Notes under the pieces: model-generated
What the model saw: the letters and a program-made list of their open reading frames with translations, nothing else
The model's database searches: none
Told to the model about the DNA's origin: nothing
From: Anaerolineae bacterium
GTDB taxonomy: Bacteria; Chloroflexota; Anaerolineae; UBA7937; B3-Chlor
Assembly: GCA_034411995.1 (NCBI GenBank)
Contig: DAOUME010000022.1
Span: 3,965 to 67,964, forward strand
Reading direction: 5' to 3'
DNA length: 64,000 bases
Position numbers and translations under genes: made by a program
In this document: positions 27,647 through 44,078 of the stretch, one piece after another
Position numbering within the stretch: the first letter of the stretch is position 1
Layout: every line of letters begins with the position of its first letter

Positions 27647-30600
27647 TTGGTGGCTCAAGAGGATCGCCCACAGGCAACCGCCCCGCCGGAGAGCCGTCGG
27701 GAGATCGAGGGTCTCGTCCAGCGCTTCGCCCGCAACCGCGACGTGTACACCCGCCCCGACTACAAAGAGACCCAGGTCCGCGTGGAGTTCATCGACCCCT
27801 TCTTCGAGGCCCTGGGCTGGGACGTGCGCAACGTCAAAGGGTACGCGGAACAGTACAAGGACGTGGTCCACGAGGACGCCATCAAGATCAGCGGGGCCAC
27901 CAAGGCCCCCGACTACTGCTTCCGCGTGGGCGGGGTGAGGAGGTTCTTCCTGGAGGCCAAGAAGCCCTCCACCGCGGTCAAGGGTGAGGTAGGCCCGGCC
28001 TACCAACTGCGCCGCTACGCCTGGAGCGCCAGGCTGCCCCTCAGTCTGCTCACCGACTTCGAGGAGCTCGCCGTCTACGACTGCCGCCAGCGGCCCCGGC
28101 CCACCGACAAGGCTGGCGTGGGCCGGGTGATGTATTACACCTTCGACCAGTACCTGGAGCGCCTGGACGAGATCTACTCCATCTTCGCCCGGGAATCGGT
28201 CCTCAAAGGCTCCTTCGACCGGTACGTGGAGGACACCAAACGCCAGCGCGGCACCAGCGAGGTGGACGTGGAGTTCCTCAAGGAGATCGAGGGCTGGCGC
28301 GACGAGCTGGCCCGCAACCTGGCCCTGAGGAACCCCCAGCTCTCCGTCCACGAGCTGAACTTCGCCGTGCAGCGCACCATCGACCGCATCATCTTCCTGA
28401 GGATGTGCGAGGACCGGGGCATCGAGAGGTATGGCGGCCTGCTGGGCCTGACCGCCGGTCCCCACGTCTACGACCGTCTGGGGGAGCTGTACCGCGAGGC
28501 CGATCAGAAGTACGACTCCGACCTCTTCGACTTCCAGGCGGACAGACTGACCAGGTCCCTCTCCCTCGACGACAAGACCCTCAAGCCCATCCTCTCCGGC
28601 CTGTACTACCCCGACTGCCCCTACGAGTTCTCCGTGCTCCCCCCGGAGATCCTGGGCCAGGTGTACGAGCAGTTCCTGGGCAAGGTCATCCGCCTCACCG
28701 CGGGCCACCGGGCCAAGGTGGAGGAGAAGCCGGAGGTGAAGAAGGCGGGCGGCGTGTACTACACCCCCTCCTACATCGTGGAGTACATCGTCCAGCAAAC
28801 GGTGGGTCGCCTCATCGAAGGCAAGACGCCCCAGCAGATCTCCAAGCTGCACATCCTGGACCCCGCCTGCGGCTCCGGATCGTTCCTGCTGGGCGCTTAC
28901 CAGCACCTGCTGGACTACCACCGGCGCTGGTACGAAGAGCACGACCCGGAGAAGTACGCCACGGCCAAGCGCCCCGCCCTGTACCAGGGCCGCGGGGGCG
29001 AGTGGCGGCTGACCACGGGGGAGAAGAAGCGCATCCTGCTCAACAACATCTACGGCGTGGACATCGACCGCCAGGCGGTGGAGGTGACCAAGCTGAGCCT
29101 GCTGCTCCAGGTGCTGGAGGGAGAGAGCCAGGAGACGTTGGGCCAGCAGTTGAAGCTGTGGCGGGAGAGGGCCCTGCCCGACCTGGGGGAGAACATCAAG
29201 TGTGGCAACTCCTTGATCGGCCCGGACTACTTTGAGGGGCAGTTGCTGCCCGACGAGGAGGAGATGCGCCGGGTGAACCCCTTCGACTGGGAGAAGGAGT
29301 TCCTCCAGATTATGAAGGCGGGCGGCTTTGACGCGGTCATCGGGAACCCGCCCTACATCCGCATCCAGAGGATCGAGCATAGCGTGGCGGACTACCTCTT
29401 CCGCTCCTATCGGGCTCCGACAAGCAAGACCGACCTCTCTCTGGTGTTTCTTGAGCGCGCTCTGGCCCTAGCAACGGACAGCGGACTTGTCGGCTTCATA
29501 TGCACGTCTCAGTGGCTGTCGACAGACTACGGGCGGAACATGCGGGCCATGCTGTCCGATGGGCGACTTCACCAAGTGGTCGACTTCGGCTCCCTGCCAG
29601 TCTTCCAGAAAGCCAATACATACCCTGCGATCCTGATCCTGAGCCCGACCCGATGCGACGCCCTTGCGCTTAAGCGGATCCGGCGAGGTGAACAGCTGAA
29701 CCTGCCGGGCATCCAAGCTACCGATCCGGTCTTGATCGATCTGGATGGACTATCGGACGACCCATGGAACCTTGGGCGTTTGGATATACCAACGCTGCTC
29801 GGCGAGCGCGGGCTCGAATGGAGACCGCTCAGCGCGTACGCGAACGCGTACATCGGAGTCCTGACCGGCATGGACAGGGCCTTCGTCGTCGAGACGAGGG
29901 CTGCCAAGCAACTCCAGTTGGAGACGGACCTGCTCTTGCCGTACGCGTACCGAGGGGCCGAAGTCCAGCGATATGCTCAGGTGGAGCCTGGGGCCCTGGT
30001 GATTTACCCGTACCGTGAAGGGCCAGGGGGCGCGCCGAGGCTCATCCCCGAACCAGAACTGAGGCGGCACTACCCGAATATCCACCAGCATCTCGTGGCT
30101 CACAAGGATGCTCTGCGTGAGCGAAGAGATAGCCGGAGATTCTACGCGAAGGGGCCAGACTGGTATCGTCACCTGCGCGCGGGCTCCTTCGACTACATTC
30201 ATGCCCGCAAGCTCCTCGTCAAGGGTATTGAGACCCGTACGGTCGTAGGCCTGTTGGACGCGGGGACAGCATTCAATGGCGCGAACTGTCCGGGCGTAAT
30301 CGTCGAAGAGCCACAACAACTCTCGCCTCTCTACATCCTGGGGATCCTCAATTCCGGCGTCATGTCGTATCACCTTCGGATGATCTGCCCGGCGAAGCTA
30401 GGCGGCTACACTAGATTCAATGCTCGCGGCATCAACAGTGCACCCATCCGCACCCTCAGTCGCACAGACCGGGCCGAGGAAGCCCGACACGACAAGATGA
30501 TCGCGCTGGTGGAGCGGATGTTGGACCTGCATGAGAAGCTGGCCGCGGCCACCATCCCCGCCGACAAGAAACTCTACCAGCGTCAGATCGAGGCCACAGA

Positions 30601-30679
30601 TGAGGAGATAGACGCGCTGGTGTATGAGTTGTATGGGTTGACCGAGGAGGAGATCGCTATCGTGGAGGGTCGGGCGTGA
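27647..30679 (+). CDS. Type IIG restriction-modification enzyme (single-chain endonuclease + N6-adenine methyltransferase + TRD; MmeI/Eco57I-like)
   Basis: 1010 aa; N-terminal PD-(D/E)xK-like region (APDYCFRVGG...FFLEAKKP), FxGxG-like SAM motif (ILDPACGSGSFLLGAY), NPPY motif (VIGNPPYIRIQ), and C-terminal methyltransferase-type tail DALVYELYGLTEEEIAIVEGRA. GTG start 9 nt after GAGGAGG. Confidence 0.8.
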   Translation: MVAQEDRPQATAPPESRREIEGLVQRFARNRDVYTRPDYKETQVRVEFIDPFFEALGWDVRNVKGYAEQYKDVVHEDAIKISGATKAPDYCFRVGGVRRFFLEAKKPSTAVKGEVGPAYQLRRYAWSARLPLSLLTDFEELAVYDCRQRPRPTDKAGVGRVMYYTFDQYLERLDEIYSIFARESVLKGSFDRYVEDTKRQRGTSEVDVEFLKEIEGWRDELARNLALRNPQLSVHELNFAVQRTIDRIIFLRMCEDRGIERYGGLLGLTAGPHVYDRLGELYREADQKYDSDLFDFQADRLTRSLSLDDKTLKPILSGLYYPDCPYEFSVLPPEILGQVYEQFLGKVIRLTAGHRAKVEEKPEVKKAGGVYYTPSYIVEYIVQQTVGRLIEGKTPQQISKLHILDPACGSGSFLLGAYQHLLDYHRRWYEEHDPEKYATAKRPALYQGRGGEWRLTTGEKKRILLNNIYGVDIDRQAVEVTKLSLLLQVLEGESQETLGQQLKLWRERALPDLGENIKCGNSLIGPDYFEGQLLPDEEEMRRVNPFDWEKEFLQIMKAGGFDAVIGNPPYIRIQRIEHSVADYLFRSYRAPTSKTDLSLVFLERALALATDSGLVGFICTSQWLSTDYGRNMRAMLSDGRLHQVVDFGSLPVFQKANTYPAILILSPTRCDALALKRIRRGEQLNLPGIQATDPVLIDLDGLSDDPWNLGRLDIPTLLGERGLEWRPLSAYANAYIGVLTGMDRAFVVETRAAKQLQLETDLLLPYAYRGAEVQRYAQVEPGALVIYPYREGPGGAPRLIPEPELRRHYPNIHQHLVAHKDALRERRDSRRFYAKGPDWYRHLRAGSFDYIHARKLLVKGIETRTVVGLLDAGTAFNGANCPGVIVEEPQQLSPLYILGILNSGVMSYHLRMICPAKLGGYTRFNARGINSAPIRTLSRTDRAEEARHDKMIALVERMLDLHEKLAAATIPADKKLYQRQIEATDEEIDALVYELYGLTEEEIAIVEGRA
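30548..30679 (+). repeat. Master copy (3-prime end of the RM gene) of a 35-130 bp direct repeat found five more times downstream
   Basis: GCCACCATCCCCGCCGACAAG...GAGGAGATCGCTATCGTGGAGGGTCGGGCGTGA; see partial copies at 31680, 33545, 34771, 37506 and 43994. Confidence 0.85.
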
Positions 30680-30789
30680 GCGGACGGCGCAGCTGGTCGA
30701 GCCGCACATCCGCTGGTAGGCGCGATGGCCCCGAATCTCGCAATCAGGGCAACCCAATGGGCAGCTAGGTTCGACAGCCGGCCGCGGCC

Positions 30790-31656
30790 GTGCGGATATT
30801 GGCTGGGCCGGGAGCGCGGAGAGTTGGAGTGACCGCAGTTGTAGGCGTAAGTTTCCTCTCGGAAGTCATAATGATCGCAGATACTAGGGTGTCCTGGCCA
30901 GGCGCCCCACGGCCACCAGCAGATATGTTGCGGAAGCTGTACCCGGTCTTTTCGCCGCGAACTCCACAAAAGGCAGCTGTGCTGGGTTTCTCCGGCACAA
31001 TATCGGCGGCCAAAACAGTAATGATACACCTCGTGAAGGACAAGCTTCGCAACTACAATCGGCCCCTGATAATGGTCAATCTGAAAGACCATTTGAAGTG
31101 CTGGATAGAAGAAGTGACGGTGACCTGCCTGAGTCCGAGGAGCAGAACCGGCCTCACCTTCATGCTCTGCGGGCTTGAACCCTCCCGCACTGCTGCTGCA
31201 AGAAAGGGAAACGCGCTCGTGAGGTATAGACAGATCTTGGAAACCCACATATACGTCTTCAGTGTGAGCCAGAGCACCGGCAGAGTAGACGTGGTGAAGA
31301 AAGGCCTCTTCGCCGTCATTGGCTCGGGTGCAACACTCGAGCGAGAGCTGAAACGGAAGATTCCGCCAATGATCAGGTTCGGATTCAACCAGCCGAATCT
31401 GCATTGGGCACGAGCTCGCTTGGTGGGCGAAGTAGCGCGAGGAGTTTTTGACAGCGGCGGCGCAACCACAGTTGGCGGACCGTTTCAAGTGTTCCGCATC
31501 ACAGCAGAAGGCTTGGTCACCGAGTACATCTGGCCGGCAAGTATACAACCAAGAGACGTCAGCGTACGACAAGAAGGCCAAAAGACCATAATACAGAATC
31601 GAGACCTCAACCAGACTTACACGCTCCATCCCATATGGGACCTGCCATTGCAGTAG
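30790..31656 (+). CDS. Hypothetical protein, weak resemblance to Ntn-hydrolase / HslV-proteasome-like fold (cassette A)
   Basis: Segments AVLGFSGTISAAKTVMIHLVKDKL and LFAVIGSGATLERELKRK resemble HslV/proteasome-beta motifs (IAGFAGGTADAF.., AIGSGG..). The start is uncertain (GTG 30790 or ATG 30874). Lower GC than surrounding sequence. Confidence 0.4.
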   Translation: MRILAGPGARRVGVTAVVGVSFLSEVIMIADTRVSWPGAPRPPADMLRKLYPVFSPRTPQKAAVLGFSGTISAAKTVMIHLVKDKLRNYNRPLIMVNLKDHLKCWIEEVTVTCLSPRSRTGLTFMLCGLEPSRTAAARKGNALVRYRQILETHIYVFSVSQSTGRVDVVKKGLFAVIGSGATLERELKRKIPPMIRFGFNQPNLHWARARLVGEVARGVFDSGGATTVGGPFQVFRITAEGLVTEYIWPASIQPRDVSVRQEGQKTIIQNRDLNQTYTLHPIWDLPLQ

Positions 31657-31679
31657 TGGGCGAACCAGCAAGTGGCGCC

Positions 31680-31811: not shown

Positions 31812-31851
31812 CAGCCAGAAACCCGATGCGGTAGGGACCTAGACGGGCGGC

Positions 31852-33510
31852 TTGCGGCATGACCAGACCGGCCTCCTCTCGCAGAGCGCAAGGCCGGGCA
31901 ATGCAGCGACCGGGGGCATCAGGGGAAATACATTGACAACCATCTCGCAGGGTGAACTGAACAACCTGAGCGTGCTCATCGTGGAAGATGCGCGGCAGGC
32001 TCTGGAGATGCTACTACGGTATCAGCAGAAGTACCGCGACGACATCAATTTCGCCGCGAACAAAGGAGGTTTGCTGATTGACATTGGTAGTCGTCTCGGC
32101 GACACCGGTGTTGTACGGCAGGGCATGGCGTCGATTGATGAGTTGCTGCCGAGGGCTGGTGAGCAATCTCGTCCCCTTCTCCTCTACAATCTAGGCAACG
32201 GGTATATGGCGTTGCACTCCATTGCTCGGCGCCAACCTGGCTTCTCATTCGACCCCGATGACACTAGACTCCGTGAAGCCAAGCGCTGTTACCGCGGCGT
32301 GCTGGGAGGATCAGAGCGTCTTGATGCCAACCAACGCGCTGGACTCCGAGTGAACTATGGCAACTGTCTCGCGAGTCTTGGCCGTTCCCTCGAGGCAATC
32401 CACCAATACGAGACGGCTCTCCGCCACGCGCCCAATCACCCCATGGCATGGGGGAACCTGGGAGTTGAGTTGGAGCGCTTCGCGTTCGTTGGTCAAGACC
32501 CGGCCATCCTGCGGGCTGCGAATGAAGGGCTACTCAGGGCTCTTGCAGATGATAGCCTTGAGCAAATGGGAGAGGATTCGGCGCGCCCCGGTTTCGAAAA
32601 GGCGCAGCAACGTATTGCACGGCTGTTGAGCCAGCTTGTAGAAGACGCGGGACTGGGCGGGCCCGAGGTGCCCCAGGCCGCGACACCGTATCATCAAGCG
32701 TACAGCGAGTTCTGTGTGAAGCATGAACTCTTCCTGAATTTCTGTCTGAAGGGCCGCCCATGCCAGCGGGTGGCTGAAGATGCTGTCAGTTTGTCAATTA
32801 CCACGCCACTTGATGACGAGACGACCTACCCTCGGCTCGCACGAGTGGTCAACGAGATCAAAGAACGATACGCGGTCGCCCGCCTACTGCTGTTCGAAGC
32901 CTGCAATCCGCCTCTTGACACTCAGCCATATGACGAGATGACCTACTACGCGGACAATCTCGACTACGCCGTATACGGGATTGGTCCCACCAAGCTGAAG
33001 CTGGCCTTTGAAAGTGCCTACAACATCTTGGACAAGCTGGCCTTCTTCGTCAACGACTATCTCGATCTGGGGATCAAGGTGCGGCTGGTGAGTTTTCAGG
33101 GGCTATGGAAGGAGCGCAAGACGGCCGCTCTCAGGCCTGCGATTGTCGAACGTGGTAATTGGCACCTGTATGGCCTGTACGACCTCTCCAAAGACCTAGC
33201 ACCGACAGGCTACCTTGAGCACCTGCGGCTCACCCGAGACTATCTAACACACCGCTATCTGGTGCTCCATGTTGAGGGGCTAGATTGGCTAACGTCCGCC
33301 GATGGTCCTGGGTACCACTCGGGCTACCGCCAGTTGCTGACCAACACGATCGAATTGATGCGACTCGTCCGCAGTGCGGTCATCTACCTCATCGCCTTCA
33401 TCGACCGAGAGGAGCGCGCGAAACGCCAAGACGGAGAGGGCTCTATTGCACCCATGCGTGTCCCGCCTTATAGGCCTTACCGGTTGGGTCCGCAGGATGC
33501 TCCAATGTAG
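31852..33510 (+). CDS. TPR-repeat protein with C-terminal HEPN-like domain (candidate defence/abortive-infection effector; cassette B)
   Basis: TPR-like helical repeats in the N-terminal half (LLYNLGNGYMALH..., YETALRHAPNHPMAWGNLG). C-terminal region with Rx4H motif (LRLTRDYLTHRYLVLH) in a context resembling LA2681/Abi-type HEPN domains. Confidence 0.5.
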   Translation: MRHDQTGLLSQSARPGNAATGGIRGNTLTTISQGELNNLSVLIVEDARQALEMLLRYQQKYRDDINFAANKGGLLIDIGSRLGDTGVVRQGMASIDELLPRAGEQSRPLLLYNLGNGYMALHSIARRQPGFSFDPDDTRLREAKRCYRGVLGGSERLDANQRAGLRVNYGNCLASLGRSLEAIHQYETALRHAPNHPMAWGNLGVELERFAFVGQDPAILRAANEGLLRALADDSLEQMGEDSARPGFEKAQQRIARLLSQLVEDAGLGGPEVPQAATPYHQAYSEFCVKHELFLNFCLKGRPCQRVAEDAVSLSITTPLDDETTYPRLARVVNEIKERYAVARLLLFEACNPPLDTQPYDEMTYYADNLDYAVYGIGPTKLKLAFESAYNILDKLAFFVNDYLDLGIKVRLVSFQGLWKERKTAALRPAIVERGNWHLYGLYDLSKDLAPTGYLEHLRLTRDYLTHRYLVLHVEGLDWLTSADGPGYHSGYRQLLTNTIELMRLVRSAVIYLIAFIDREERAKRQDGEGSIAPMRVPPYRPYRLGPQDAPM

Positions 33511-33544
33511 TCCCCAGGTGCCGCGTGCAGAACTCTAGTTCGGG

Positions 33545-33598
33545 GTGCTAGTGTATGAGTTATATGGGTTGACCGAGGAGGAGATCGCGATTGTCTGA
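33545..33598 (+). repeat. Direct repeat copy 3 of the RM-gene 3-prime end (about 55 bp), ends in TGA
   Basis: GCTAGTGTATGAGTTATATGGGTTGACCGAGGAGGAGATCGCGATTGTCTGA. Confidence 0.8.
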
Positions 33599-33631
33599 AG
33601 GGCTTCCTCAGCGCAGAGAGTAGGCTGTAGC

Positions 33632-34135
33632 ATGATTCAGCCTTGGAGCGACCCCATACCGTACGACCTATCCCGCACGCTGCGTCGGGCAAGTGTCCCG
33701 CCGGGGTTCAGCAGTAGTGTGCCGCAGACTCCGGGTACGTACGTGATCTATTGCACCGCTCAACCAGACCTATGTGAAGCTATCATTGATATCGGAGAAG
33801 CTGGCCCGCGCGCCAAAGCGAGACCAAAGGGCCTCCGAGGGAGGCTGGCAACTACAGTTGCCCACACGGCCTCTGAAAGGATGGCCGCTGACGTACAGGC
33901 CGGCAAACTCCCGAACAGACTCCGTGTAGTTTGGATCGAGAGGCCGTCCAAAGAGGACGCCAAGGAGTTACAGGACGCACTTATCAGCCTCTTCCGAACG
34001 GATTGCGGACGCCAGCCGCGACACAACAAGAGACTGGAGCAGCACCCAAAGCCTGAGGCCTTCCTGGCGATTTGCGCCGCCCTGAAGAGGCACATTGGCG
34101 GCCTATTGCGCCACCCGACGGCCCGCTGCGGGTGA
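33632..34135 (+). CDS. Hypothetical protein with GIY-YIG-like nuclease motif (cassette C)
   Basis: PGTYVIYCTAQ...AIIDIGEAG...R..E spacing resembles GIY-(10-11)-YIG with downstream Arg/Glu; weak and unverified. Confidence 0.35.
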   Translation: MIQPWSDPIPYDLSRTLRRASVPPGFSSSVPQTPGTYVIYCTAQPDLCEAIIDIGEAGPRAKARPKGLRGRLATTVAHTASERMAADVQAGKLPNRLRVVWIERPSKEDAKELQDALISLFRTDCGRQPRHNKRLEQHPKPEAFLAICAALKRHIGGLLRHPTARCG

Positions 34136-34245
34136 CCAGACCGGCGTGCCCCAGGTTGGAGTGAGCGCTGCCCCCCGGCGGGCTCAGCCCGAGGGGGCCG
34201 GGGGCAAATCGTTCGGTGCAACAGCAGAATCAAAGGAGGAGGAGA

Positions 34246-34691
34246 TGTCTGAGTTGCTCACTGCTATCGGCGTCGTATCAGCCGCTAGTGTGTCGATCCT
34301 TAGTGTCTTTGTCCCTTCTTACTACGACAGGCAGCACCGCAAGGAGGAGAAAGCCGACGCCGAACTCCGAAGAATAGACGAGACTACCTTGGGTTTTCTA
34401 GCACAGCTCTCGAACTTCCGGCATTGGGAACCCAGGAGCCTTCAGAAGATCGCGGGGGATCGTGCACTAGAGCATCTCTACACCGACTTGCAGGTAGCGC
34501 AGTATGCTTGGGAGCGCGCCGTTTGGCCAAAACTGGGTGATCAAGACCGCGCCAAGGTCGAGACCATCCGCACAAGGCTTGAAGGGGTCCATACCGCCAA
34601 CGACCTGTCGAGACGCGCAAATGAGTCGGATGTTCCTGCATTGGCAGATCAAATCCTCGCATTGGCTCGTGCCGCAAATGGACGGCCCTAG
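34246..34691 (+). CDS. Hypothetical small membrane-anchored protein (cassette C)
   Basis: ATG directly after GGAGGAGGAG; N-terminal TM helix (LLTAIGVVSAASVSILSVFV) then a charged helical region. Confidence 0.4.
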
Positions 34692-34770
34692 TCGACCAAG
34701 TGTGTTTGGTTTTGGTGTACAGTGTGCACTGACGCACAGCTGCTTCGGCCCAACAATGGCTTGACCCCAT

Positions 34771-34848: not shown

Positions 34849-35029
34849 AACGCGCTGCGCGGACCGGCTACCCCGAAACAGAGTTCGGTGATCTCTCGGG
34901 GCTCGGATGTGGCATGGTGATGGGGACCAACGTTGGGCCACTGCGCCAGTTGAGGTGACTGGGTGGAAAGATGTCCGCATAATCATTAGTTAGCACGCTT
35001 CACGCCGCTGACGCTCGGGAAGGAAAACC

Positions 35030-36085
35030 ATGAGCAAAGAAATCCTAGTGAGAATGGACATACCAATCCCCGCTCACAAAATCGTCAATACACCTGCCAT
35101 GGTTTTCAGCAGGTGGATGCCTCTGGACGAGGATGAGTCTATTGTAGTCCAAGAGGAAAACGCCACCCTGAGGTTATGGTTCGACAGAAGTTGCTGGCAT
35201 AACGTGACTCACGCGGGAGGAGACATACCTAATCACGTGAATGTTCTCGTAGACAAGGTATTCGCAGATGTAACGCTCCGCGACTTGTCTGAGGGTTTAG
35301 TAGACTACATTGAACTCACAGCCACTGAACCTCACCCTCCAGAGAGCCCCTACCAGCAAGAGTACCGGGAGCTAGGACAGAAAGTGTACCTTCTAACTCT
35401 CACCTACCTGAACAGATTGATTAACTACGCACGAAGCATGAAGGGGCAATACTGGCTACAAGAATACCCCCTTAGCGAAGCTGAGGGCCTGTCTACTGTC
35501 AACCTGGCTTTCAAAGCCCGTGTCCTAATCGACTCTGAATGGGTTAGGTGGTTCCCGGATGTCAGGCAGCTAGTTATCGGCAGGGTGGGAGGCTGTCAAG
35601 ACAGAGAGCGTTTCATAGACAAGGACTCCTGGTCACAGGTCAGGAGCTTCATCACATCAAAGCAACGGGCCTCACTTGTCCGGGAACTCCTCGCCGGGGC
35701 AGAGTGGCTCGCTGGAATTGGGCACCGCAGAAGTGCATTGACAGAAGCAATAACAGCACTTGAAGCCGCAATCACCACATTCTCAAACCAGCCCAAAGCA
35801 GAGGAAGCTTTCGGCTCTCTTATTACGGAGAGAATGAACGTGAGCTCACTGAGCAATTGGACTGAAAAGATGGGTTTGTCGGGCACCATTCACTACCTCT
35901 TCCCACTGGTATTCTCTGAAGAGATGATGCCCACCGACATTCTGACAGATTGTCAGGAGGCGATACTAGAGCGCCAGAATGTGGTGCACAACGCTCAGCG
36001 AGATGTTCAGGAAGATAAGCTGTCAGTGTACCTGGAGGCAATTCGCAATATGTGTCGCCTGCTCGAAACTTACCAGCAAACTTAG
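35030..36085 (+). CDS. Hypothetical protein, 351 aa, markedly lower GC (cassette D)
   Basis: AT-richer codon usage than the flanking DNA. No recognisable domain; a C-terminal Rx4H (ERQNVVH) could be an HEPN-like motif or chance. Confidence 0.45.
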   Translation: MSKEILVRMDIPIPAHKIVNTPAMVFSRWMPLDEDESIVVQEENATLRLWFDRSCWHNVTHAGGDIPNHVNVLVDKVFADVTLRDLSEGLVDYIELTATEPHPPESPYQQEYRELGQKVYLLTLTYLNRLINYARSMKGQYWLQEYPLSEAEGLSTVNLAFKARVLIDSEWVRWFPDVRQLVIGRVGGCQDRERFIDKDSWSQVRSFITSKQRASLVRELLAGAEWLAGIGHRRSALTEAITALEAAITTFSNQPKAEEAFGSLITERMNVSSLSNWTEKMGLSGTIHYLFPLVFSEEMMPTDILTDCQEAILERQNVVHNAQRDVQEDKLSVYLEAIRNMCRLLETYQQT

Positions 36086-36259
36086 TACCTAGTCACGCAG
36101 TCCATCCCGAGAAGAGCGTGGTAACAGGTCGCTGGCGGCGACAGCCCCTGTCGGTGCCAGGCTGCGTGTGGAGCGACGACTCGGCGATACTCCAGGCTAG
36201 CGGAAGAGCGTCGACGAGAAGACTCAGGCACGCGAAATGACCTATCGCTTCTACGAGAA

Positions 36260-36460: not shown

Positions 36461-36574
36461 GAGGGGCGGCGCTGCGCCTTGTGCGCTTGCGCGCCGCTGG
36501 TCCAGCTCTACCCAAGCAGACCGCTCTGCCATGGAGGGGTCAATCACCCAGGCACCCAGCGACACCTTCGTAGA

Positions 36575-36593
36575 GGCGGGTCTGAGACCCGCC
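36575..36593. repeat. Palindrome GGCGGGTCTGAGACCCGCC (member of the GGGTCTSAGACCCGCCC repeat family)
   Basis: Perfect 9+1+9 palindrome followed by CGCAAG, the same tail as the copy at 46635. Confidence 0.6.
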
Positions 36594-36734
36594 CGCAAGC
36601 GGCCTCCCGATTCGTCATGGTCGTTCGCACAAACCTCGGCCGGTGCGCCGGTTTGGAGCACCACGCGCGACGCTGTCGGCCAGGCAGCTCGGATCAAAGA
36701 GCTCCATAGTCACGAGTGAGGGACTAGCAACGTC

Positions 36735-37478
36735 ATGAGCATTCGTTTACTCGATTGCGCGCCGATGGCTCCCCGGTACCCACGGTGGCACCTGGGGACT
36801 CCCTGTCTGCTCGTCGACACCGACCAGGGCCTCGTTCTCGTCGATACCGGCCTCGGCCTGCACGACTTTCTGGCCCCAGGGCCCCTGGTCCGCCTCTTCG
36901 CGTGGGCTTTGCGCTTCCCTCACGATCCCGAGCACGCCGCCGTGCGCCAGCTCTCGCGCCTGGGCCACGACCCCGAATCTGTCCGGCACATCGTGATGAC
37001 CCACCTCCATTTCGACCACGCCGGGGGCCTTCCCGACTTCCCCCACGCTCAGGTTCACGTACACCGCCGCGAGTACGAGGCCATGCTCCATCCTCGCAGT
37101 CTGCTAGAGCTGGGCTACGATGGCCTCGATTTCGCCCATGGGCCCTCCTGGGTTCTCTACGACCAACCCACCGAGGACTGGCTCGGGTTCGAGGCTTTCC
37201 GGCTGCCCTTCACGCCGGAGATGTATCTCGTCCCACTCTTCGGCCACACCCGCGGCCATTGCGGGGTAGCCATCCAGGACGATGATGGTTGGGTCTTGCA
37301 GTGTGCCGACGCCCTGCCCACGAATGCTGACTTCGACCTCACCCCGCCATGGCTCAACCGTTTGGTGATCGGACCGCACGTTGCCAGGTTGCGGGAGTGG
37401 GCTTGCCGCCATCCCGAAGTTCGCCTGTTGGCCGGGCACATGCGGCACCCTTTCCCCGATCACAAGGGCGAAGTCTGA
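36735..37478 (+). CDS. MBL-fold metallo-hydrolase
   Basis: HxHxDH motif (MTHLHFDHAGG) and downstream His/Asp ligands (GHTRGH). Confidence 0.8.
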   Translation: MSIRLLDCAPMAPRYPRWHLGTPCLLVDTDQGLVLVDTGLGLHDFLAPGPLVRLFAWALRFPHDPEHAAVRQLSRLGHDPESVRHIVMTHLHFDHAGGLPDFPHAQVHVHRREYEAMLHPRSLLELGYDGLDFAHGPSWVLYDQPTEDWLGFEAFRLPFTPEMYLVPLFGHTRGHCGVAIQDDDGWVLQCADALPTNADFDLTPPWLNRLVIGPHVARLREWACRHPEVRLLAGHMRHPFPDHKGEV

Positions 37479-37505
37479 GAGTCCCCGGCCGAAGCGGACC
37501 CGACT

Positions 37506-37544: not shown

Positions 37545-37836
37545 ACCGCTGAGGCCAGCTTCGCAAGGCCAGGCCTGACACCCGCCCCTACCAACCCCCC
37601 AGCCCTGCGTGCGGCGGGCCTTTCTTTGCCCAACACAGACTCGCGAAAGAACCTGAGCTCAGCATACACTTGCGGCAGCTAGCCCTTCTGGCGCCACTGA
37701 GTGCCGCCCGGACACAGCCCATTGGCGAGGACAAACGTGCGCCTGAGGCGCCAGATGGCTTGACGGCGCCGAACGATATCCCCATAATCACTAGTTGGGA
37801 GGACACAACAGGAGGGAATATGAAAGAGCGCGAATC

Positions 37837-38832
37837 AGTATGGGAAGATTGAGAGTCGGCTTGCTGAACAAGAAACGGGGCAACTTTGCACTCGAAGAAA
37901 GGTTCATAGGCCCCGATGGCGTCGTTGATAGGACGAACGCCGAAGCAGAACATCACCAGCGGGCCCTGACCGAAGCCGGTTACGTTGTCCGCCAGATTCG
38001 CTGGGGCCCTGATTTCATCAACGATCTACAGGCTTCCCCAGTCGATCTTGTGTTCAACGTTTCCAGTCTGGTAGAAGCCGCGATCCTCGAAGAATTGCAG
38101 ATACCCTACGTGGGCTCCGATACGTTCACCATCGCCATCGCCACCGACAAATCGCTGGCGAAAAGGCTCTGGCAGCAGGCGGGCCTGCCGACATCGCCTT
38201 TCTGGCTGGCCAGATCGCAGAAGGACTGTGGCCTGTTTGGGGGCATCCCACCCTTCGAGTATCCCCTGTTCGTCAAGCCGGTGGCCGGCCGAGGCAGCGC
38301 AGGGATCGACGACACGTCCATCGTTCACAGCTACGACCAACTGGTCAGCGCAGTTGTGGAAAGGCTGGAGACTATCGGTCAACCAGTCCTCATAGAGAAG
38401 CTGCTGCGGGGCAGAGAAATCACCCTGGGCGTCCTGGGAAATGAGCGCGCAAGGGCCCTTCCTCCATTAGAGATCGCGTATTGCGAGGGGGATGACACAC
38501 TGACTTTCGAGAAGAAAGAGTTGGACAACGATACCTTCCTCTGCCCTGCTCCGCTGACCGCTGAAGAGACCCACACCATGCAGCAATTGGCGCTTCGGGC
38601 CTACCACGTGTTGGGCTTCAGGGACTTTGGCCGAATTGACACGATCTTGACCGACGAAGGGCCGTGCTTGTTGGAGGGGAACACTTTCGCGGGGCTCATG
38701 TGCACACCCAAGGAGAAACCTCGTAGCTATATTGGCTTCATGGCTCGCGCAGAGGGAAAGGACGGCAAGGCTCTGCTGGATGAGATCATGCAGATAGCTA
38801 TCAGGAGACTCAACTTGAAAGCCTGTGATTGA
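37837..38832 (+). CDS. ATP-grasp enzyme of the D-alanine--D-alanine ligase family
   Basis: Ddl-like N-terminal and ATP-grasp patterns (LRVGLLNKKRG..., EYPLFVKPVAGRGSAGI, ITLGVLG). The ORF was trimmed to the ATG at 37837. Confidence 0.7.
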   Translation, partial: SMGRLRVGLLNKKRGNFALEERFIGPDGVVDRTNAEAEHHQRALTEAGYVVRQIRWGPDFINDLQASPVDLVFNVSSLVEAAILEELQIPYVGSDTFTIAIATDKSLAKRLWQQAGLPTSPFWLARSQKDCGLFGGIPPFEYPLFVKPVAGRGSAGIDDTSIVHSYDQLVSAVVERLETIGQPVLIEKLLRGREITLGVLGNERARALPPLEIAYCEGDDTLTFEKKELDNDTFLCPAPLTAEETHTMQQLALRAYHVLGFRDFGRIDTILTDEGPCLLEGNTFAGLMCTPKEKPRSYIGFMARAEGKDGKALLDEIMQIAIRRLNLKACD

Positions 38833-39436
38833 GATGTCAGTACCTCGGATAGAGATAGAACTCGACAAACTGAGCCATAACGCCCGCAAGCTGATAGCTC
38901 TATACGGTTCCAAGCGAATCCACATCGTGGCTGTCACGAAGGGGCTCTGTGGCTCTCCCAGGATTGCGAATCCTCTGCTCAAGAGCGGATTCCGCTGCTT
39001 CGGCGACTCACGCACCCCCAACGTACGAGAGCTGCGCGAGGGTGGCATAGATGCGCAATTCACCTTCATCCGCTCCCCCATGCCCAGCCGGGTCGAGCGA
39101 GTGCTCGAATCTGACGACGTAAGTCTCGATACAAAGATCGCCGTTATGCAGCTTCTTGCCGATGAGGCCACCAGATGTGGCAGAAGCCATCGAGTCAGTC
39201 TGATGGTTGGGCTGGCCTATCTACGGGAGGGCATACTACCCTCCGATCTCGAGCCGGTGGTGAAGGGGATCATTGGCATGCAAGGCATGGATCCACTTGT
39301 CTCCGGCAGGCTGCGGGACGATAATCTGCTGGGCTGGGGTAGTGCCCGCCCGTGGGAGGAAAGGGCAGGCCCAGCGTGCTCATCCGCGTGGATCGGCGGA
39401 AGGGTCGCGCCTGATTCTCTCCCTGAGCAGCGATGA
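38825..39436 (+). pseudogene. Alanine-racemase-like N-terminal (PLP-binding barrel) fragment, apparently truncated or frameshifted
   Basis: LIALYGSKRIHIVAVTKGLCGS resembles the alanine racemase N-terminal domain. Only about 200 aa are present, the C-terminal 60 aa look like out-of-frame read-through, and the ORF overlaps the downstream ADH start. Confidence 0.35.
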
Positions 39437-39483
39437 CCTTCGAGCAGTCGAACCGGCGCGGTTCGGAAAGGAGGGCTACACCA

Positions 39484-40512
39484 ATGTCTGCTTCAACCAT
39501 ACTGGGATACGCCGCGAGGGCGGTGGGACAACCGCTCGAGCCCTTCACCTACGAGCCGCCGCCGTTGGACGAACACGACGTGCGGGTTTCTGTCACTCAC
39601 TGCGGCGTCTGCCACACCGACGTCCACGCCATCGACGACTACTACGGAATCACCACCTATCCCTTCGCGCCCGGTCACGAGATCGTGGGCTACGTCTCGG
39701 ATGTGGGCCCGGCAGCGTCCGGCCTGAAGGAAGGGGACAGGGTGGGCATAGGCTGGCAGGGCCGTTCTTGCGGGCAGTGTGAGTGGTGCTTGAAGGGAGA
39801 AGAGCAACTGTGTATGGACATCGTCCAGGCGGCAACCTGGCTCCCCTACGGAGGGTTCTCCTCCTCCGTCGTCGTGGACAGCCGCTTCGCCTACGGGCTC
39901 CCTGACGGTATGCCCTCGGAGATAGCCTCGGTGCTCATGTGCGCCGGGATCACCGTCTACTCTCCCCTCCGCTCCTTCGCCGCGCCACCCTCGCAGAAAC
40001 TCGGCATCGTCGGCGTGGGAGGGCTGGGCCATCTCGCCCTACAGTTCGCCCGCGCCTTCGGCTACGAGGTCACCGCCATTTCCTCGTCCCCAGAGAAGAA
40101 GGAGCAGGCGCTGGCCTTCGGCGCAGACCACTTCGTCGTCTCGGACCAGGCCAGCCTGTCCGAGCTCGAGTTCACCTTCGACCTGCTGCTATGCACCGCC
40201 AGCGGCAAGATCGACTGGGTGCCGCTGCTGGACACTCTGAAGAAGAACGGCAAGATGATCCTCGTCGGCTTCCCCGACGTGGAGCTCAATTCGACCGACC
40301 TGGTGGCGCACCAACTCTCCATCCTCACGTCCTTCCTGGGCAACCGGGCGCGAATGCGGGAGATGCTGTCGTTCGCGCAGGCCCACGGCATTACCCCCGC
40401 CATCGAGCAAATGCCCATGTCGGAGGTCAACGAAGCCCTTCAGAGAGTGAGAGACAACCAGGCCCGCTACCGCATCGTGCTCGTCAACGAGACGGAGAGC
40501 ACAGGGGCCTAG
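39484..40512 (+). CDS. Zinc-dependent alcohol dehydrogenase (MDR family)
   Basis: CGVCHTDVH, GHEIVGYV, a structural-zinc Cys cluster (CGQCEWCLKGEEQLC) and GxGxxG (GIVGVGGLGH); ATG at 39484 with GGAGGG RBS. Confidence 0.85.
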   Translation: MSASTILGYAARAVGQPLEPFTYEPPPLDEHDVRVSVTHCGVCHTDVHAIDDYYGITTYPFAPGHEIVGYVSDVGPAASGLKEGDRVGIGWQGRSCGQCEWCLKGEEQLCMDIVQAATWLPYGGFSSSVVVDSRFAYGLPDGMPSEIASVLMCAGITVYSPLRSFAAPPSQKLGIVGVGGLGHLALQFARAFGYEVTAISSSPEKKEQALAFGADHFVVSDQASLSELEFTFDLLLCTASGKIDWVPLLDTLKKNGKMILVGFPDVELNSTDLVAHQLSILTSFLGNRARMREMLSFAQAHGITPAIEQMPMSEVNEALQRVRDNQARYRIVLVNETESTGA

Positions 40513-40590
40513 TCCCCCCTTCCCTCACGGGTGATCTGGTCCAGCCAGACTCGCACCATTACTGCTCAGACTACGGCACAGGAGGCCACC

Positions 40591-41823
40591 ATGGATTACG
40601 ACTTCGACGCCGAGGTCGACCGCCGAGGCACCGACTCTCTGAAATGGGAGTTCATACAGAGCGACGAAGATCCGCTGAAGTGGGAGCTCACCGATTCTTT
40701 CTTCGGAGAAGACCGTACCCTCCCCTTGTGGGTGGCGGACATGGACTTCCCCTGTCCCCAGCCGGTAGTGGATGCGCTGGTGGCCAGGGCCCAGCACGGG
40801 ATCTACGGCTACACCATGCCCTCTCCCGCCTTCTATCGATCCGTCGTCGGCTGGATGCGGAGACGGCACGGGTGGGAGATAGCGCCCGAATGGATCTGTA
40901 TCACCCCTGGGGTCGTGCCGGCCGTCAACATGCTGGTCCGCGCCTTCGTCGCCCCTGGCGACAAAGTACTGATCCAGCCCCCGGTCTACTATCCTTTCTA
41001 CTCCGCCATCGAGAACAACGGCGCCGAGCTGGCCCTCAACCCCCTGATCTACGAGGACGGTCGCTATCGCATGGACCTGGCGGACCTGGAGGCCAAATGC
41101 CAGGATCCTCAGGTCAAGCTGGCCATCCTGTGCAGTCCGCACAACCCCGTGGGGCGCGTGTGGACCCCGGAGGAGCTCCGCCGCTTTGGGGAGATCTGTA
41201 TCGACAACGACGTGCTCGTCGTCTCTGACGAGATCCACGCCGACCTGATCTTCAAAGGTCACGTGTTTACGCCCTTCGCCAAGGTCAGCGAACCCTTCGC
41301 CCAGCATTCCGTCACCTGCACCGCGCCCAGCAAGACCTTCAACCTGGCCGGGTTGCAGACCTCTTGTATCGTCATCCCCAATCACGATCTGCGCTCCGTC
41401 TTCGATAGAATCGTGCAGAGCAACGGGCTGGTCACCGTCGGCACCTTCGGCGCGGTTGCCCTTCAGGCCGCGTACGATCTTGGAGAGGAATGGCTGGGGC
41501 AGCTTCTCGACTATCTCCAGGGGAACCTCGAATACCTCGAGCAGTACGTGGCGGAGCAGATCCCGCAACTATCCGTGGTGCGACCAGAGGGGACCTACCT
41601 GGTCTGGCTCGACTGTCGCCGGCTTGGGCTCAGCAAGTGGGGGCTAAAGCAACTCATGCTGGAGGAGGCGAGAGTCTATCTCGACGAGGGTTTCGTGTTC
41701 GGCCCCCAGGGTGAGGGCTTCGAACGTCTCAACATCGCTTGCCCCCGAGGAGTCCTGGCTGAGGCGCTCGATCGAATCAGGCAGGCCGTGGAAAGCCTGC
41801 CGGCCGGACCGATGTCCGCGTAG
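40591..41823 (+). CDS. PLP-dependent C-S lyase / aminotransferase class I-II (MalY/PatB-like)
   Basis: GTDSLKWE N-terminus, PLP-Lys region (SPHNPVGRVW...S.SKTFNLAGL). Start set at MDYDFDAEVD. Confidence 0.75.
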   Translation: MDYDFDAEVDRRGTDSLKWEFIQSDEDPLKWELTDSFFGEDRTLPLWVADMDFPCPQPVVDALVARAQHGIYGYTMPSPAFYRSVVGWMRRRHGWEIAPEWICITPGVVPAVNMLVRAFVAPGDKVLIQPPVYYPFYSAIENNGAELALNPLIYEDGRYRMDLADLEAKCQDPQVKLAILCSPHNPVGRVWTPEELRRFGEICIDNDVLVVSDEIHADLIFKGHVFTPFAKVSEPFAQHSVTCTAPSKTFNLAGLQTSCIVIPNHDLRSVFDRIVQSNGLVTVGTFGAVALQAAYDLGEEWLGQLLDYLQGNLEYLEQYVAEQIPQLSVVRPEGTYLVWLDCRRLGLSKWGLKQLMLEEARVYLDEGFVFGPQGEGFERLNIACPRGVLAEALDRIRQAVESLPAGPMSA

Positions 41824-41881
41824 CCGGTCGCTGAGCAGCCCCACGCCGTGCTCGTCACATCTCCCAGAGGGTTACAGGAAG

Positions 41882-42886
41882 ATGAACGAAGAGGACCAAC
41901 CTGCTTGGGTGAATCCGCGTCTCGTGCGGCCGCACGGCTGGTCACCCATACTGCACGTCGACCTGGAAAAGATGACAGACCAGCAGAGGCAGACGTTTGC
42001 CCTTCATCGCCTCTCCGGTTTCACGGCTGCGGGTTACCCTGCAGAGAGGTGCTACCATTTCTACACCAACAAGCAAGCTGAGTCCTTCTCGCTGCCCACC
42101 TACGTGTGGACACCCTGGAGCAGAGACTCAACCGCGTTGGAACCCGCGAAGATCGAATCGGTGCAGGAAATGCTGCCGTACGTCGCGGATGAGGAAATTG
42201 TCCATGTCTGTCGTTCTCTCATCGAACAGGGACAACTGCTGGACCACACCAGCGAGCAACTGGGCCGGGCACTCGCCGACTTCCTTGGCCTACCCTCCCC
42301 AGAAACCGACCGGCATTCCGAGCAACTGTGGCGACGAGCGAACGAGTATCGCGCGAAGCACGGCCCGGCCTGGGCAAGTCAGGCACAGATCAGGCCACTG
42401 GTCGCCCAGTTGAAGGACGTCTTCGTGGAGCTGAGTTCGTCGCAGTTTGAGCTTCACGGCAGGCTCCGACCCTATTACGAGCGCCTGGCCCCAGGTGGCG
42501 CGGAGATGGGCGATCAACGAGCCGACGACCTGGTCAACCAGGCCATGGAAGAGCCCGACGCCGATCGTGCCATACGCCTGCTCGAGAGAGCCTTACGATA
42601 CGGCAAGACCGGTATCCCGGCCAGCAGGGCCTACGTGGAACTTGCCGGACGCTACTCAGACCGGGGGGAGACCAAGAGAGCCATCGCCTACTACACCAAG
42701 TCCATCGAAGCCTCCAAGATTCCTAACGCCTACGCTCTCTACTGGCGGGGAGAGCTATACTATCAGCAAGAGGAGTGGGACAAGGCGCTCGGCGATTTCG
42801 AACGGGCGGTGTCCATAGGGCTTTTCTCGCCCGAGTGCGAGCAGGCGCAAGAGTATCTAGCCGAGCTGCGTGGCCGTCAGCCCTAG
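41882..42886 (+). CDS. Hypothetical protein with C-terminal TPR repeats
   Basis: ATG at 41882; C-terminal AIAYYTKSIEA..AYALYWRGELYYQQEEWDKALGDFERAV are TPR-like. Confidence 0.5.
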   Translation: MNEEDQPAWVNPRLVRPHGWSPILHVDLEKMTDQQRQTFALHRLSGFTAAGYPAERCYHFYTNKQAESFSLPTYVWTPWSRDSTALEPAKIESVQEMLPYVADEEIVHVCRSLIEQGQLLDHTSEQLGRALADFLGLPSPETDRHSEQLWRRANEYRAKHGPAWASQAQIRPLVAQLKDVFVELSSSQFELHGRLRPYYERLAPGGAEMGDQRADDLVNQAMEEPDADRAIRLLERALRYGKTGIPASRAYVELAGRYSDRGETKRAIAYYTKSIEASKIPNAYALYWRGELYYQQEEWDKALGDFERAVSIGLFSPECEQAQEYLAELRGRQP

Positions 42887-42897
42887 CGATGACCCGT

Positions 42898-42959
42898 GGG
42901 GGTGGGTCTCAGACCCGCCCCTACGCAGGTGCCCTTGCTACGTGGGGTGATCTCACCCC
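42898..42959. repeat. Dispersed about 50-60 bp repeat (GGGGGTGGGTCTCAGACCCGCCCCTACGCAGGTGCC..TTGCTACGTGG) containing two hairpins
   Basis: About 90% identical to 45063..45110; the core palindrome GGGTCTSAGACCC also occurs at 36575 and 46635. Confidence 0.7.
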
Positions 42960-43066
42960 CGCATACCGTCCGGGCCTGAACAGACATGTCGGCATAGCCA
43001 GTAATCAGCCGCCCCGTCGTGGTACTCACGGTCCCGCTTCGTGGGCAAGGGTAGAGCGGAGGGAGA

Positions 43067-43882
43067 GTGATGACCAAGAAAGGCGAGGACAGTCGCAAAC
43101 CGCTTGGCACCCGCGAATGGTACGATTTCGTTGGTCAACTCGCAGACGCGCTGCCAGGGATGCACCTGGGAGGACAGGAAGCTACGCAGAAACTGCTGGA
43201 GATGTGCGATCTGGAAGCGACGAGCCGCGTTCTCGATGTGGGCTGCGGTGGCGGGAACACAGCCTGCTTCATCGCCGAGCAGTACGGTTCGTCTGTCCGA
43301 GGGATAGACATATCCGAGGTCATGATCGACAAGTCCAAAGAGAGGGCGCGCCGACAGGGACTGGAGGACAAAGTCGAGTTCCGGGTTGCCGACGCGGCCG
43401 AGCTACCCTTCGAGGATGACTCATTTGACGTGGTCATCGTTGAGTCCGTCTTGACGCCGATACCTGGCGACAAGAGCAAGGCGCTTGGGGAGATGGTCAG
43501 GGTTGCGCGTGCCGGAGGGCGGATTGGGGCCAATGAATCCACTGTGGATCCGTCGGCGCCGGAAGAGTGGCTGGCTCTCCTGGACGAGCACCCGGCCATA
43601 CATGGGTACTTCACGCCGCAGACGCTCCGCAGCCTGTTCGAAGAATCCGGGCTGCAAGTGGTGGAGATGATCGAGGCTCAATACGTGGATACCCCGAAGG
43701 CGCTCAAGGACATGGGCCTACGCGCGGTGTTCTCCTTCATGCTCAGGGCCTATCCAAAGATCCTGCTCCGGCTGCTGCGCGACGCACGGATCAGGGAAGC
43801 CAGCAGGGTCGATGGCCAAATGACGAAGCGGGGCAAGGAGTACATGGGCTACACCTTGATCGTTGGGCAGAAACCTGGATAG
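43067..43882 (+). CDS. Class I SAM-dependent methyltransferase (UbiE/COQ5-like)
   Basis: VLDVGCGGGNTACFIAEQYG motif I and DVVIVESVL post-I motif. Confidence 0.75.
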   Translation: MMTKKGEDSRKPLGTREWYDFVGQLADALPGMHLGGQEATQKLLEMCDLEATSRVLDVGCGGGNTACFIAEQYGSSVRGIDISEVMIDKSKERARRQGLEDKVEFRVADAAELPFEDDSFDVVIVESVLTPIPGDKSKALGEMVRVARAGGRIGANESTVDPSAPEEWLALLDEHPAIHGYFTPQTLRSLFEESGLQVVEMIEAQYVDTPKALKDMGLRAVFSFMLRAYPKILLRLLRDARIREASRVDGQMTKRGKEYMGYTLIVGQKPG

Positions 43883-43993
43883 CGACCGCGGCCACGTCGT
43901 AGAAAGTGCAGCGCAAAACGGCAGGTGTCGAATGGATTGTGTTCATAGGGGCGACGGCCCATAAGGCGCTACAGGGCCAGACTCGGGCCACCG

Positions 43994-44030
43994 CTGGAGA
44001 GATCGCTACGGTGGAGGGGCGGGACCGCTG
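43994..44030 (+). repeat. Direct repeat copy 6 of the RM-gene 3-prime end (about 37 bp), ends in TGA
   Basis: GGAGAGATCGCTACGGTGGAGGGGCGGGACCGCTGA. Confidence 0.75.
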
Positions 44031-44047
44031 AGAACAGCGAGGGCGCA

Positions 44048-44078
44048 CTGTAGGGGCGAGTCGGCGACTCGCCCCTAC
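44048..44078. repeat. REP-like palindrome CTGTAGGGGCGAGTCGGCGACTCGCCCCTAC
   Basis: 13-bp perfect arms with GTAGGGG/CCCCTAC ends, located directly after direct-repeat copy 6. Confidence 0.7.

Follow-up and report, generated by a model that had tools for sequence, protein, structure and literature searches.

Co-oriented gene cassettes separated by copies of the 3' end of a type IIG-like restriction-modification gene in an Anaerolineae bacterium and in other Bacteria and Archaea

A cassette array behind a restriction-modification gene

The stretch of DNA analysed here (64,000 nt of contig DAOUME010000022.1, positions 3,965 to 67,964, from assembly GCA_034411995.1 of an Anaerolineae bacterium; hereafter the window) carries a restriction-modification (RM) gene whose last ~136 nt, referred to below as the tail, are repeated five times downstream. 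All six copies (c1 to c6; Table 1) lie on the plus strand and delimit a series of gene cassettes. This same-strand recurrence was the core of an earlier reading of the window made from its letters alone (the original prediction), and it proves far beyond chance: the 20-mer GAGATCGCTATCGTGGAGGG, with up to three mismatches allowed, has five matches against 0.03 expected, all on the plus strand, and a pattern coding for YGLTEEEI has four against 0.02. A clade-specific nucleotide profile (nhmmer) recovers c2, c3, c4 and c5 with E-values of 2e-39, 2e-11, 2e-17 and 1e-3, respectively, and these four copies are statistically secure. Copy c6 is marginal by itself (profile E = 0.27; a 20-mer match with two mismatches) and is supported instead by its orthology with a full-length tail elsewhere, since c6 and the REP-like palindrome that follows it align to a 124-nt tail copy (tail 4) and a palindrome in locus L062. 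The latter locus (loci other than the window bear L numbers) belongs to a Chloroflexota metagenome-assembled genome (MAG), and its RM gene is 85% identical in nucleotide sequence to that of the window.

The second copy is 85-86% identical to c1 over 131-136 nt, and the differences between the two fall on codon positions 1, 2 and 3 in the ratio 3:2:13; in c3, four of four differences from c1 are at third codon positions. A TGA follows all six copies, as the original prediction had stated, but it is in frame in only five of them, the frame of c4 running on for 27 more codons past its out-of-frame TGA. In the other five the stop is found 1-5 codons past the IVEG codons, and the terminal residues are GRA*, GRG*, V*, GRNC* and GRDR*. 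The progressive shortening of the copies, also claimed at the outset, holds roughly within the window (136, 52, 80, 43 and 43 nt for c2 to c6) but is no rule: for 73 displaced copies collected across loci (see below), rank in the array and length are not correlated (rho = -0.12, p = 0.30), and a trend of identity with rank is likewise absent.

In type IIG enzymes the nuclease, the gamma-class N6-adenine methyltransferase and the specificity domain, the last at the C-terminus, are parts of a single polypeptide. Pfam profiles matched by the RM protein are HSDR_N for the nuclease (residues 39-149), Eco57I (466-653) and N6_Mtase for the methyltransferase, MmeI_Mtase, and TaqI_C for the specificity domain (848-934), a set of predicted domains that agrees with the type IIG assignment proposed originally. 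The GC content at third codon positions (GC3) of the gene is 0.85, which is host-like, as in the surrounding genes. The RM alleles of the window clade (window 27647-30679 compared with L081-L105) are mosaic: their N-terminal 1.7 kb are ~90% identical, the ~1 kb encoding the specificity domain cannot be aligned, and alignment resumes over the last 180-230 nt. This pattern points to frequent swapping of specificity domains between two conserved arms, of which the tail is therefore the right-hand one. Throughout the RM family, the last ~45-85 codons form a strongly conserved block located just after the hypervariable specificity domain.

Table 1. Features of the RM-anchored array (window positions; an asterisk denotes a stop codon)
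Feature	Position	Strand	Description
RM gene (array anchor)	27647..30679	+	type IIG-like, single-chain, 1010 aa; open reading frame and Pfam
Tail copy c1	30544-30679	+	functional RM 3' end, encodes ...IPADKKLYQRQIEATDEEIDALVYELYGLTEEEIAIVEGRA*
Cassette 1	30680..31675	+	one gene, from 30790 or more likely GTG 30829 to 31656; GC3 0.61
Tail copy c2	31676-31811	+	full length (136 nt), own in-frame stop (…AEGRG*)
Cassette 2	31812..33546	+	TPR and LA2681-type HEPN gene 31852-33510; Pfam HEPN_LA2681 E = 4e-46
Tail copy c3	33547-33598	+	52 nt, right-anchored (…LVYELYGLTEEEIAIV*)
Cassette 3	33599..34768	+	two small open reading frames, 33632-34135 and 34095-34691; the first with a GIY-YIG-like motif only
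Tail copy c4	34769-34848	+	80 nt, TGA out of frame
Block 4	34849..37501	+	promoter-like module 34955-34983, 351-aa gene 35030-36085, metallo-beta-lactamase-fold gene 36735-37478
Tail copy c5	37502-37544	+	43 nt (…TGEEIAIVEGRNC*)
Block 5	37545..43988	+	terminator and promoter module 37545-37803, Ddl-like, Alr-N, ADH, aminotransferase, TPR, methyltransferase
Tail copy c6	43989-44031	+	43 nt, truncated (…AGEIATVEGRDR*)
REP-like palindrome	44050..44078		family D4, hairpin z-score -4.7; not array-specific

Arrays in other Bacteria and Archaea

Scans with the RM protein yielded 80 genome loci and 80 metagenome loci, and the locus counts given below refer to 161 loci, in which tails were detected in all six frames with a protein profile of the 40-residue tail. 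Altogether 217 tail copies were found, every one of them (217/217) on the strand of the RM gene, and 40 of the 142 tail-bearing loci possess two to six copies. When the count is restricted to loci whose downstream sequence is 1.5 kb or longer and RM genes are grouped into clades at nucleotide identities of at least 85%, arrays are present in 32 of 102 loci and in 14 of 59 clades. The array-bearing clades include Chloroflexota, Planctomycetota, WOR-3, Leptospiraceae, a proteobacterial MAG, Methanothrix and another archaeon; within the window clade, 18 of the 19 informative loci have an array. The cassettes, ~70 of which were observed, have a median length of 1.26 kb and hold one to three genes, often a single one. 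Their open reading frames (ORFs) are co-oriented with the RM gene in 90% of cases (82/91), compared with 63-65% in the flanks. A tblastn search of plasmids with the tail peptide returned no match at E <= 1e-3, the query being too short for this result to be informative.

Right-anchored copies of a protein-coding block

The geometry of the repeats was determined by comparing the last 1.5 kb of each RM gene with its own locus, which gave 78 repeats, all of them direct. In 77 of these the right edge falls within about -5 to +10 nt of the IVEG codons, a minority reaching or passing the stop codon; tail copies have their right-hand anchor where the conserved ...EEIxIVEG motif ends. Left edges, on the other hand, are spread from -203 to ~0, and none extends further into the gene. 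A single fragment lacks the right end and retains the left one only. The longest tail remnant amounts to ~85 codons, no longer RM remnants were found inside the arrays, and none of 74 displaced tails is preceded by recognisable specificity-domain coding sequence (as judged against ~140 specificity domains).

Among 88 non-redundant tails, the amino acid motif is near-invariant and third codon positions are close to maximally variable, so that the tails contain no DNA-level site beyond what coding requires. Nor was single-stranded structure detected when the tails were folded as DNA on both strands (z-scores of -1.3 to +1.3). The defined crossover core envisaged in the original prediction is consequently not upheld, the shared core being the EEIxIVEG coding sequence itself, with free synonymous sites, scattered left edges and no attC-like hairpin. 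A Xer/dif-like site was also considered and rejected, the core showing no dyad symmetry on inspection.

The differences between displaced copies and the RM tail are distributed over codon positions 1, 2 and 3 as 26%, 18% and 56%, where neutrality predicts one third at each position; functional tails compared with one another served as a control and gave 20%, 13% and 68%. In addition, c2 is more similar to the functional tails of other loci (88-90% identity) than to c1 (86%), and c4, which is 93% identical to the functional tail of L093, is likewise nearer to the tails of other loci than to c1. Taken together, the third-position bias and the affinity of c2 and c4 to foreign functional tails suggest that much of the divergence arose while the copies were working gene ends.

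Turnover and transfer of cassettes between loci

Comparison with related loci revealed that the content and the order of the cassettes vary. Locus L062 also possesses six tails, but mostly different cassettes; what it shares with the window, at other positions, are the cassette-3 gene, the ADH gene, and c6 with the palindrome and a DUF1801 gene. Within the window clade, one cassette of 1.3 kb stands second in the array of L101 and first in that of L105. Its interior is 95-100% identical between the two, and identity drops to 77-92% in both flanking tails, declining gradually into them without a step at the core; the N-terminal regions of the two RM genes are 90% identical and their specificity domains cannot be aligned. 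Similarly, L089 and L103 (RM N-terminal regions 92% identical) share a tail-plus-cassette segment at 99% identity, preceded by a tail of 130 nt in one locus and of 70 nt in the other. In Methanothrix, L024 represents an empty site in which the shared cassette follows the RM tail directly, whereas L017 and L055 contain differing extra cassettes between the RM tail and a second tail that precedes the same shared cassette.

Repeated insertion at the RM 3' end with regeneration of the gene end, the central proposal of the original prediction, is borne out by these comparisons: cassettes differ behind orthologous RM genes, filled and empty sites coexist in Methanothrix, one cassette differs in position between L101 and L105, five of the six copies in the window have stops of their own, and 56% of the differences in displaced copies are at third codon positions.

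Search for a recombinase

No integrase or transposase domain was detected among the window genes within ~10 kb on either side of the array, and no recombinase is among the best 25 of the 58 families matched in the whole window, in line with what had been noted from the sequence at first sight. Across the 161 loci, 1,629 ORFs were clustered, and every family other than the RM gene is confined to 19 loci or fewer. Pfam was applied to ten recurrent neighbour families, a set that leaves out the second-largest cluster (19 loci, minus strand), and identified no recombinase among them: they correspond to an ABC transporter, Fic/DOC, a TPR multihaem cytochrome c, an aldehyde dehydrogenase, SelB, aspartokinase, PriA, a PAS sensor histidine kinase and two families without a match. 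The cassette proteins of related arrays do not include a recombinase either.

A further candidate was the diversity-generating retroelement, which consists of a template and a variable repeat differing at adenines, plus a reverse transcriptase. It was discarded, as the differences between c1 and c2 are not adenine-specific and Pfam detects no reverse transcriptase domain in the array.

Genes carried by the cassettes

The cassette-1 protein is predicted to adopt a proteasome-beta/Ntn-hydrolase fold, in keeping with its initial description as Ntn-like: its AlphaFold model (pLDDT 83) matches 20S beta subunits in the PDB with a Foldseek E-value of 3.6e-9, and neither Pfam nor PADLOC provides a match. 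A homologue in the L168 contig (76% nucleotide identity) is also flanked by tails and is not the first in its array. More distant homologues (40-47% identical) are devoid of flanking tails; the family is thus not exclusive to such arrays. The family of this protein (30829-31656) is rare, with 20 clusters among 5.8 billion proteins, and has an invariant Thr directly after the likely GTG start. Its distant members adjoin NYN or HEPN genes in other genomes, and in two metagenome contigs (L170, 807-2152; L171, 44-1389) a homologue is interrupted or abutted by an IS630-type (DDE_3) transposase pair.

Neither ORF of cassette 3 has a profile or PDB match, and the GIY-YIG-like identity originally given to the first one comes down to resemblance in a motif. 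The same ORF is 80% identical in nucleotide sequence to L062 15764-16283 and 79% to its counterpart in L085, at different array positions. For the remaining gene content, profiles confirm TPR-HEPN of the LA2681 type, metallo-beta-lactamase (MBL) hydrolase, Ddl, the N-terminal domain of Alr, ADH, aminotransferase, TPR and methyltransferase. In block 4, window positions 34774-34994 align to L062 21406-21658. Block 5 (6.4 kb) is probably composite, because its Ddl-like and Alr-N genes have a lower GC3 than the ADH and aminotransferase genes after them (0.80-0.84, host-like); the methyltransferase gene has a GC3 of 0.75. The ADH gene comes immediately after a tail copy in L093 and L081, and in L093 it is succeeded by the aminotransferase gene. 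The alanine racemase homologue (38825-39436) comprises the N-terminal domain only (203 aa) and may be truncated. Lowered GC, reported initially for several blocks, applies to the genes in cassettes 1-3, to gene 35030-36085 at the start of block 4 and to the first two of block 5 (37795-39436), with GC3 values of 0.58-0.69 against ~0.80 for the host, but not to the MBL, ADH and aminotransferase genes.

The cassettes encode defence- or toxin-type domains, namely HEPN, PIN, NYN, HNH, PD-(D/E)XK, ParE, OLD-TOPRIM, AAA_15/21, DUF4238 and DUF3800, and some proteins of the related arrays match the PADLOC models PDC-S18, HEC-09, PDC-M04A and PDC-S11. We infer that the cassettes act in defence; most of them are unannotated.

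Many tail copies of the window clade are followed by a conserved non-coding module of 150-250 nt, composed of a terminator-like hairpin and then a TTGACN-17-CATAAT promoter (37545-37803 and 34849-34994 in the window); it is also found right after tails in L062, L083, L085, L086, L093, L098, L100, L101 and L159. The module matches nothing in Rfam and displays no conserved RNA structure, the covariation term being unfavourable; it probably serves as a common promoter/operator and moves along with the cassettes. Across 27-47 kb of the window, Rfam gave no match at E <= 1. The REP-like family (GTAGGGGCGGGTCTGAGACCCGCCCCTAC) has four members in the window (36570-36598, 42896-42924, 44050-44078 and 45060-45088), strong hairpins that occur inside and beyond the array without a tie to the tail copies.

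The array is flanked by housekeeping genes, among them those for LepA, a 5'-nucleotidase, an MFS transporter, a glycosyltransferase and GDPD. Immediately upstream of the RM gene, an ORF of 615 aa (25287-27134) has a host-like GC3 and no Pfam or PADLOC match; homology between the window and L062 begins only ~150 nt before the RM start, so this ORF is not conserved. In a few loci the 5' end of the RM gene, including the upstream region (-150 to +97/+260), is repeated as well (L083 1920-2300; L093 658-995, 2826-3271 and 9292-9539; L091 8180-8460). One such head copy is located directly after a tail and before an AAA-ATPase cassette. In L083, a 58-codon head is joined in frame to a 43-codon tail, forming a mini-ORF of ~100 aa, the L093 orthologue of which is interrupted by an in-frame TAG. 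No head copies were found in the window.

Proposed mechanism and alternative explanations

The comparisons above show the architecture of the arrays and its recurrence, the turnover and transfer of cassettes and the right-anchoring of the copies, and they brought to light neither a recombinase nor a DNA-level site. The explanation that we favour, with a probability of roughly 0.55, is that of a gene-stacking locus anchored by homology in the conserved tail, which grows by serial displacement of the RM 3' end. DNA from another allele would arrive carrying a tail with its own stop and the downstream gene or genes, and would recombine with the resident tail on its left side, while its right side would be linked by illegitimate joining within the resident tail or, where the donor already possesses a second tail, to that one. 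A new end would complete the RM gene, and the part of the old tail between the joint and the stop would be displaced downstream together with whatever followed it. Repeated rounds would stack co-oriented cassettes, and ordinary homologous recombination between tails could then move, swap or delete any cassette flanked by them. The machinery would be that of host homologous recombination (RecA/RadA), with occasional illegitimate joining.

An anchor in the conserved tail block and a second joint inside the same block would yield right-anchored copies of variable length bounded by that block. Displacement would likewise account for the near absence of left-only fragments, for the individual stops and terminal codons of the copies, for the codon-position signature and for the co-orientation of the cassettes. 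It would also explain why arrays are present in both domains of life without a recombinase, and why identity declines into the two tails around a transferred cassette.

Several points weigh against this explanation. The recombination steps themselves are reconstructed by comparing sequences, and the explanation does not say how the first duplication came about in each of ~14 clades. Arrays are present in 0 of 11 loci of the Nitrosomonadales/Gallionella clade, where the tails are equally conserved; such a lineage bias is not predicted by purely generic recombination and fits either a spread from pre-existing arrays or a lineage-specific factor. In L017, the freshest event, the two copies around the insert, 94% identical to each other, have 13 derived positions in common that set them apart from L024, the relative with the empty site; this looks more like duplication of the target in situ, or a donor of the same lineage, than like the arrival of a foreign tail. 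In Methanothrix, the junction of two different cassettes with a tail copy falls on exactly the same nucleotide (-221), a coincidence that needs a preferred joint or a later swap of cassettes. Finally, the cassette proteins of the window itself matched no PADLOC model.

The freshest Methanothrix event would fit a model in which foreign DNA entered just after the IVEG codons non-homologously, for instance at staggered breaks that were then filled in, duplicating 30-220 nt of the target, with homologous recombination only shuffling the cassettes later. A comparable class of events, insertion with long target duplication, has been described (Nobusato et al. 2000; Furuta, Abe and Kobayashi 2010, PMC2853133): inserts are bounded by direct target repeats of more than 30 bp and of variable length, no transposase or integrase is involved, and the cases, recognized by comparing filled and empty sites, are linked to RM loci (PMC2853133). 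The arrays resemble this class in their long, variable-length flanking repeats of more than 30 bp, in the lack of mobility genes and in the target being single-copy at the empty site L024 and filled in L017 and L055. However, the published inserts are RM genes that use various targets once each, and not insertions into an RM gene, whereas here the RM 3' end is the target and is reused serially, up to five times, with right-anchored copies. Target duplication gives no reason for this reuse, nor for the position of the right edge at the motif end in 77 of 78 repeats. It also sits poorly with displaced copies that differ mostly at third codon positions and are often nearer to the functional tails of other loci, although later allelic replacement could mimic this. 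On balance we consider target duplication an unlikely origin of the arrays.

The original prediction had instead drawn on integrons and tRNA islands, and a recombinase encoded elsewhere, or of an undescribed type, could in principle treat the tail as an att site and integrate circular cassettes. Short (median 1.26 kb), co-oriented and often single-gene cassettes would agree with such a system, as would the common right end of every copy, the strong lineage bias and the identical left edge of the two Methanothrix cassettes. Yet no recombinase is among the recurrent neighbour families checked in the 161 loci or among the genes within ~10 kb of the array, conservation of DNA does not exceed the coding need, and there is neither a fixed core nor an attC-like fold; moreover, the left edges scatter over 200 nt, identity falls off by degrees on entering the tails, and arrays occur in both Bacteria and Archaea. 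The site-specific mechanism first put forward is thus not supported, and we regard a dedicated system of this kind as rather improbable.

Independent decay of several tandem RM or methyltransferase genes, each with its own partner gene, was already doubted in the original prediction and is very improbable. Head copies and one head-to-tail fused mini-gene do exist in L083, L091 and L093, and imply that whole RM copies are sometimes reduced there. Nevertheless, all 77 remnants are right-anchored and none is longer than 203 nt, out of a gene of 3 kb; no specificity-domain (0/74) or methylase coding sequence precedes them, and random deletion would produce broad lengths and left-only pieces as common as right-only ones. 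Chance resemblance or an assembly artefact can practically be dismissed, even though many loci come from metagenome assemblies and c6 alone is marginal, given the 0.03 matches expected against five observed, the 75-95% identity among copies, which collapse or mis-joining of repeats would not yield, and the same architecture in 40 independent contigs.

Relation to known systems and significance

At rhs and cdiA loci, new units enter by the main gene through recombination in a conserved region, and the old ends are pushed downstream without a dedicated recombinase. The arrays resemble the 'orphan' arrays of these loci in that the downstream units are co-oriented and that each begins with a fragment of the conserved 3' region of the main gene. 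They differ in what comes after the repeat, which there leads into an alternative C-terminal toxin domain and an immunity gene and here into 1-5 codons followed by unrelated, free-standing genes, and in the anchor, which is an RM enzyme rather than a secreted toxin. C-terminal displacement in polymorphic toxins has been reviewed (PMC3482391). In how they would work, the RM-anchored arrays are thus akin to known displacement and stacking driven by recombination; in layout they are like integrons or tandem tRNA-gene islands. Their recurrence in many Bacteria and Archaea suggests a manner of gene collection for which no integrase is needed.

Integrons rely on the tyrosine recombinase IntI and on attC sites, imperfect palindromes that fold as single-stranded hairpins. 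Like integron cassettes, those described here are short, co-oriented, mostly single-gene units of varying content placed behind a fixed point, with the newer ones near the anchor; unlike in integrons, the separators are copies of coding sequence, and no IntI, attI/attC or folded single-strand site was found in the searches above. Tandem islands at the 3' ends of tRNA and other genes (for example of the tycheposon type) use tyrosine integrases and a fixed crossover. Regeneration of the target gene end and the separation of inserts by partial copies are common to these islands and to the arrays, but the latter have variable left edges and cassettes of ~1 kb, and no integrase was detected. In shufflon-type phase-variable RM loci there are inverted repeats, silent specificity-domain modules and a nearby invertase, whereas the arrays contain only direct repeats and no specificity-domain sequence in the cassettes, again with no recombinase found.

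Defence genes 'embedded' in RM, BREX or Hma systems have been reported by Payne et al. (2024; bioRxiv 10.1101/2024.01.29.577857). That work treats co-location only: recombination is unmentioned, and its single mentions of 'repeat' and 'duplicat' do not concern duplication of a gene end. The embedded genes are nonetheless similar to the cassettes, being small defence genes within or next to RM-type systems, and some proteins of the related arrays match its HEC/PDC models. No prior description of the present array architecture was found in the open-access literature searched, which does not amount to proof of novelty.

Defence islands and embedded genes are well documented. A short block under protein constraint at the RM end, acting as a universal homology handle by which cassettes are captured, stacked and exchanged, would offer a testable route for small defence genes to reach RM systems, and for defence islands to form, without a mobility gene. 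It would also supply a rule for discovery, by which any gene enclosed by two copies of an RM 3' end in the same orientation becomes a candidate for a role in defence; one family found in the cassettes is the rare one with a proteasome-beta fold. A bolder possibility, which we hold to be doubtful, is that the tail is the attachment point of an undescribed gene-capture platform in Bacteria and Archaea, functionally equivalent to the integron for defence genes and run either by an unrecognised, lineage-restricted recombination activity or by self-propagating, recombinase-free units of the form tail-cassette-tail, able to leave as circles and to enter any tail again. Should a dedicated activity indeed be behind the arrays, they would constitute a new class of cassette system spanning both prokaryotic domains.

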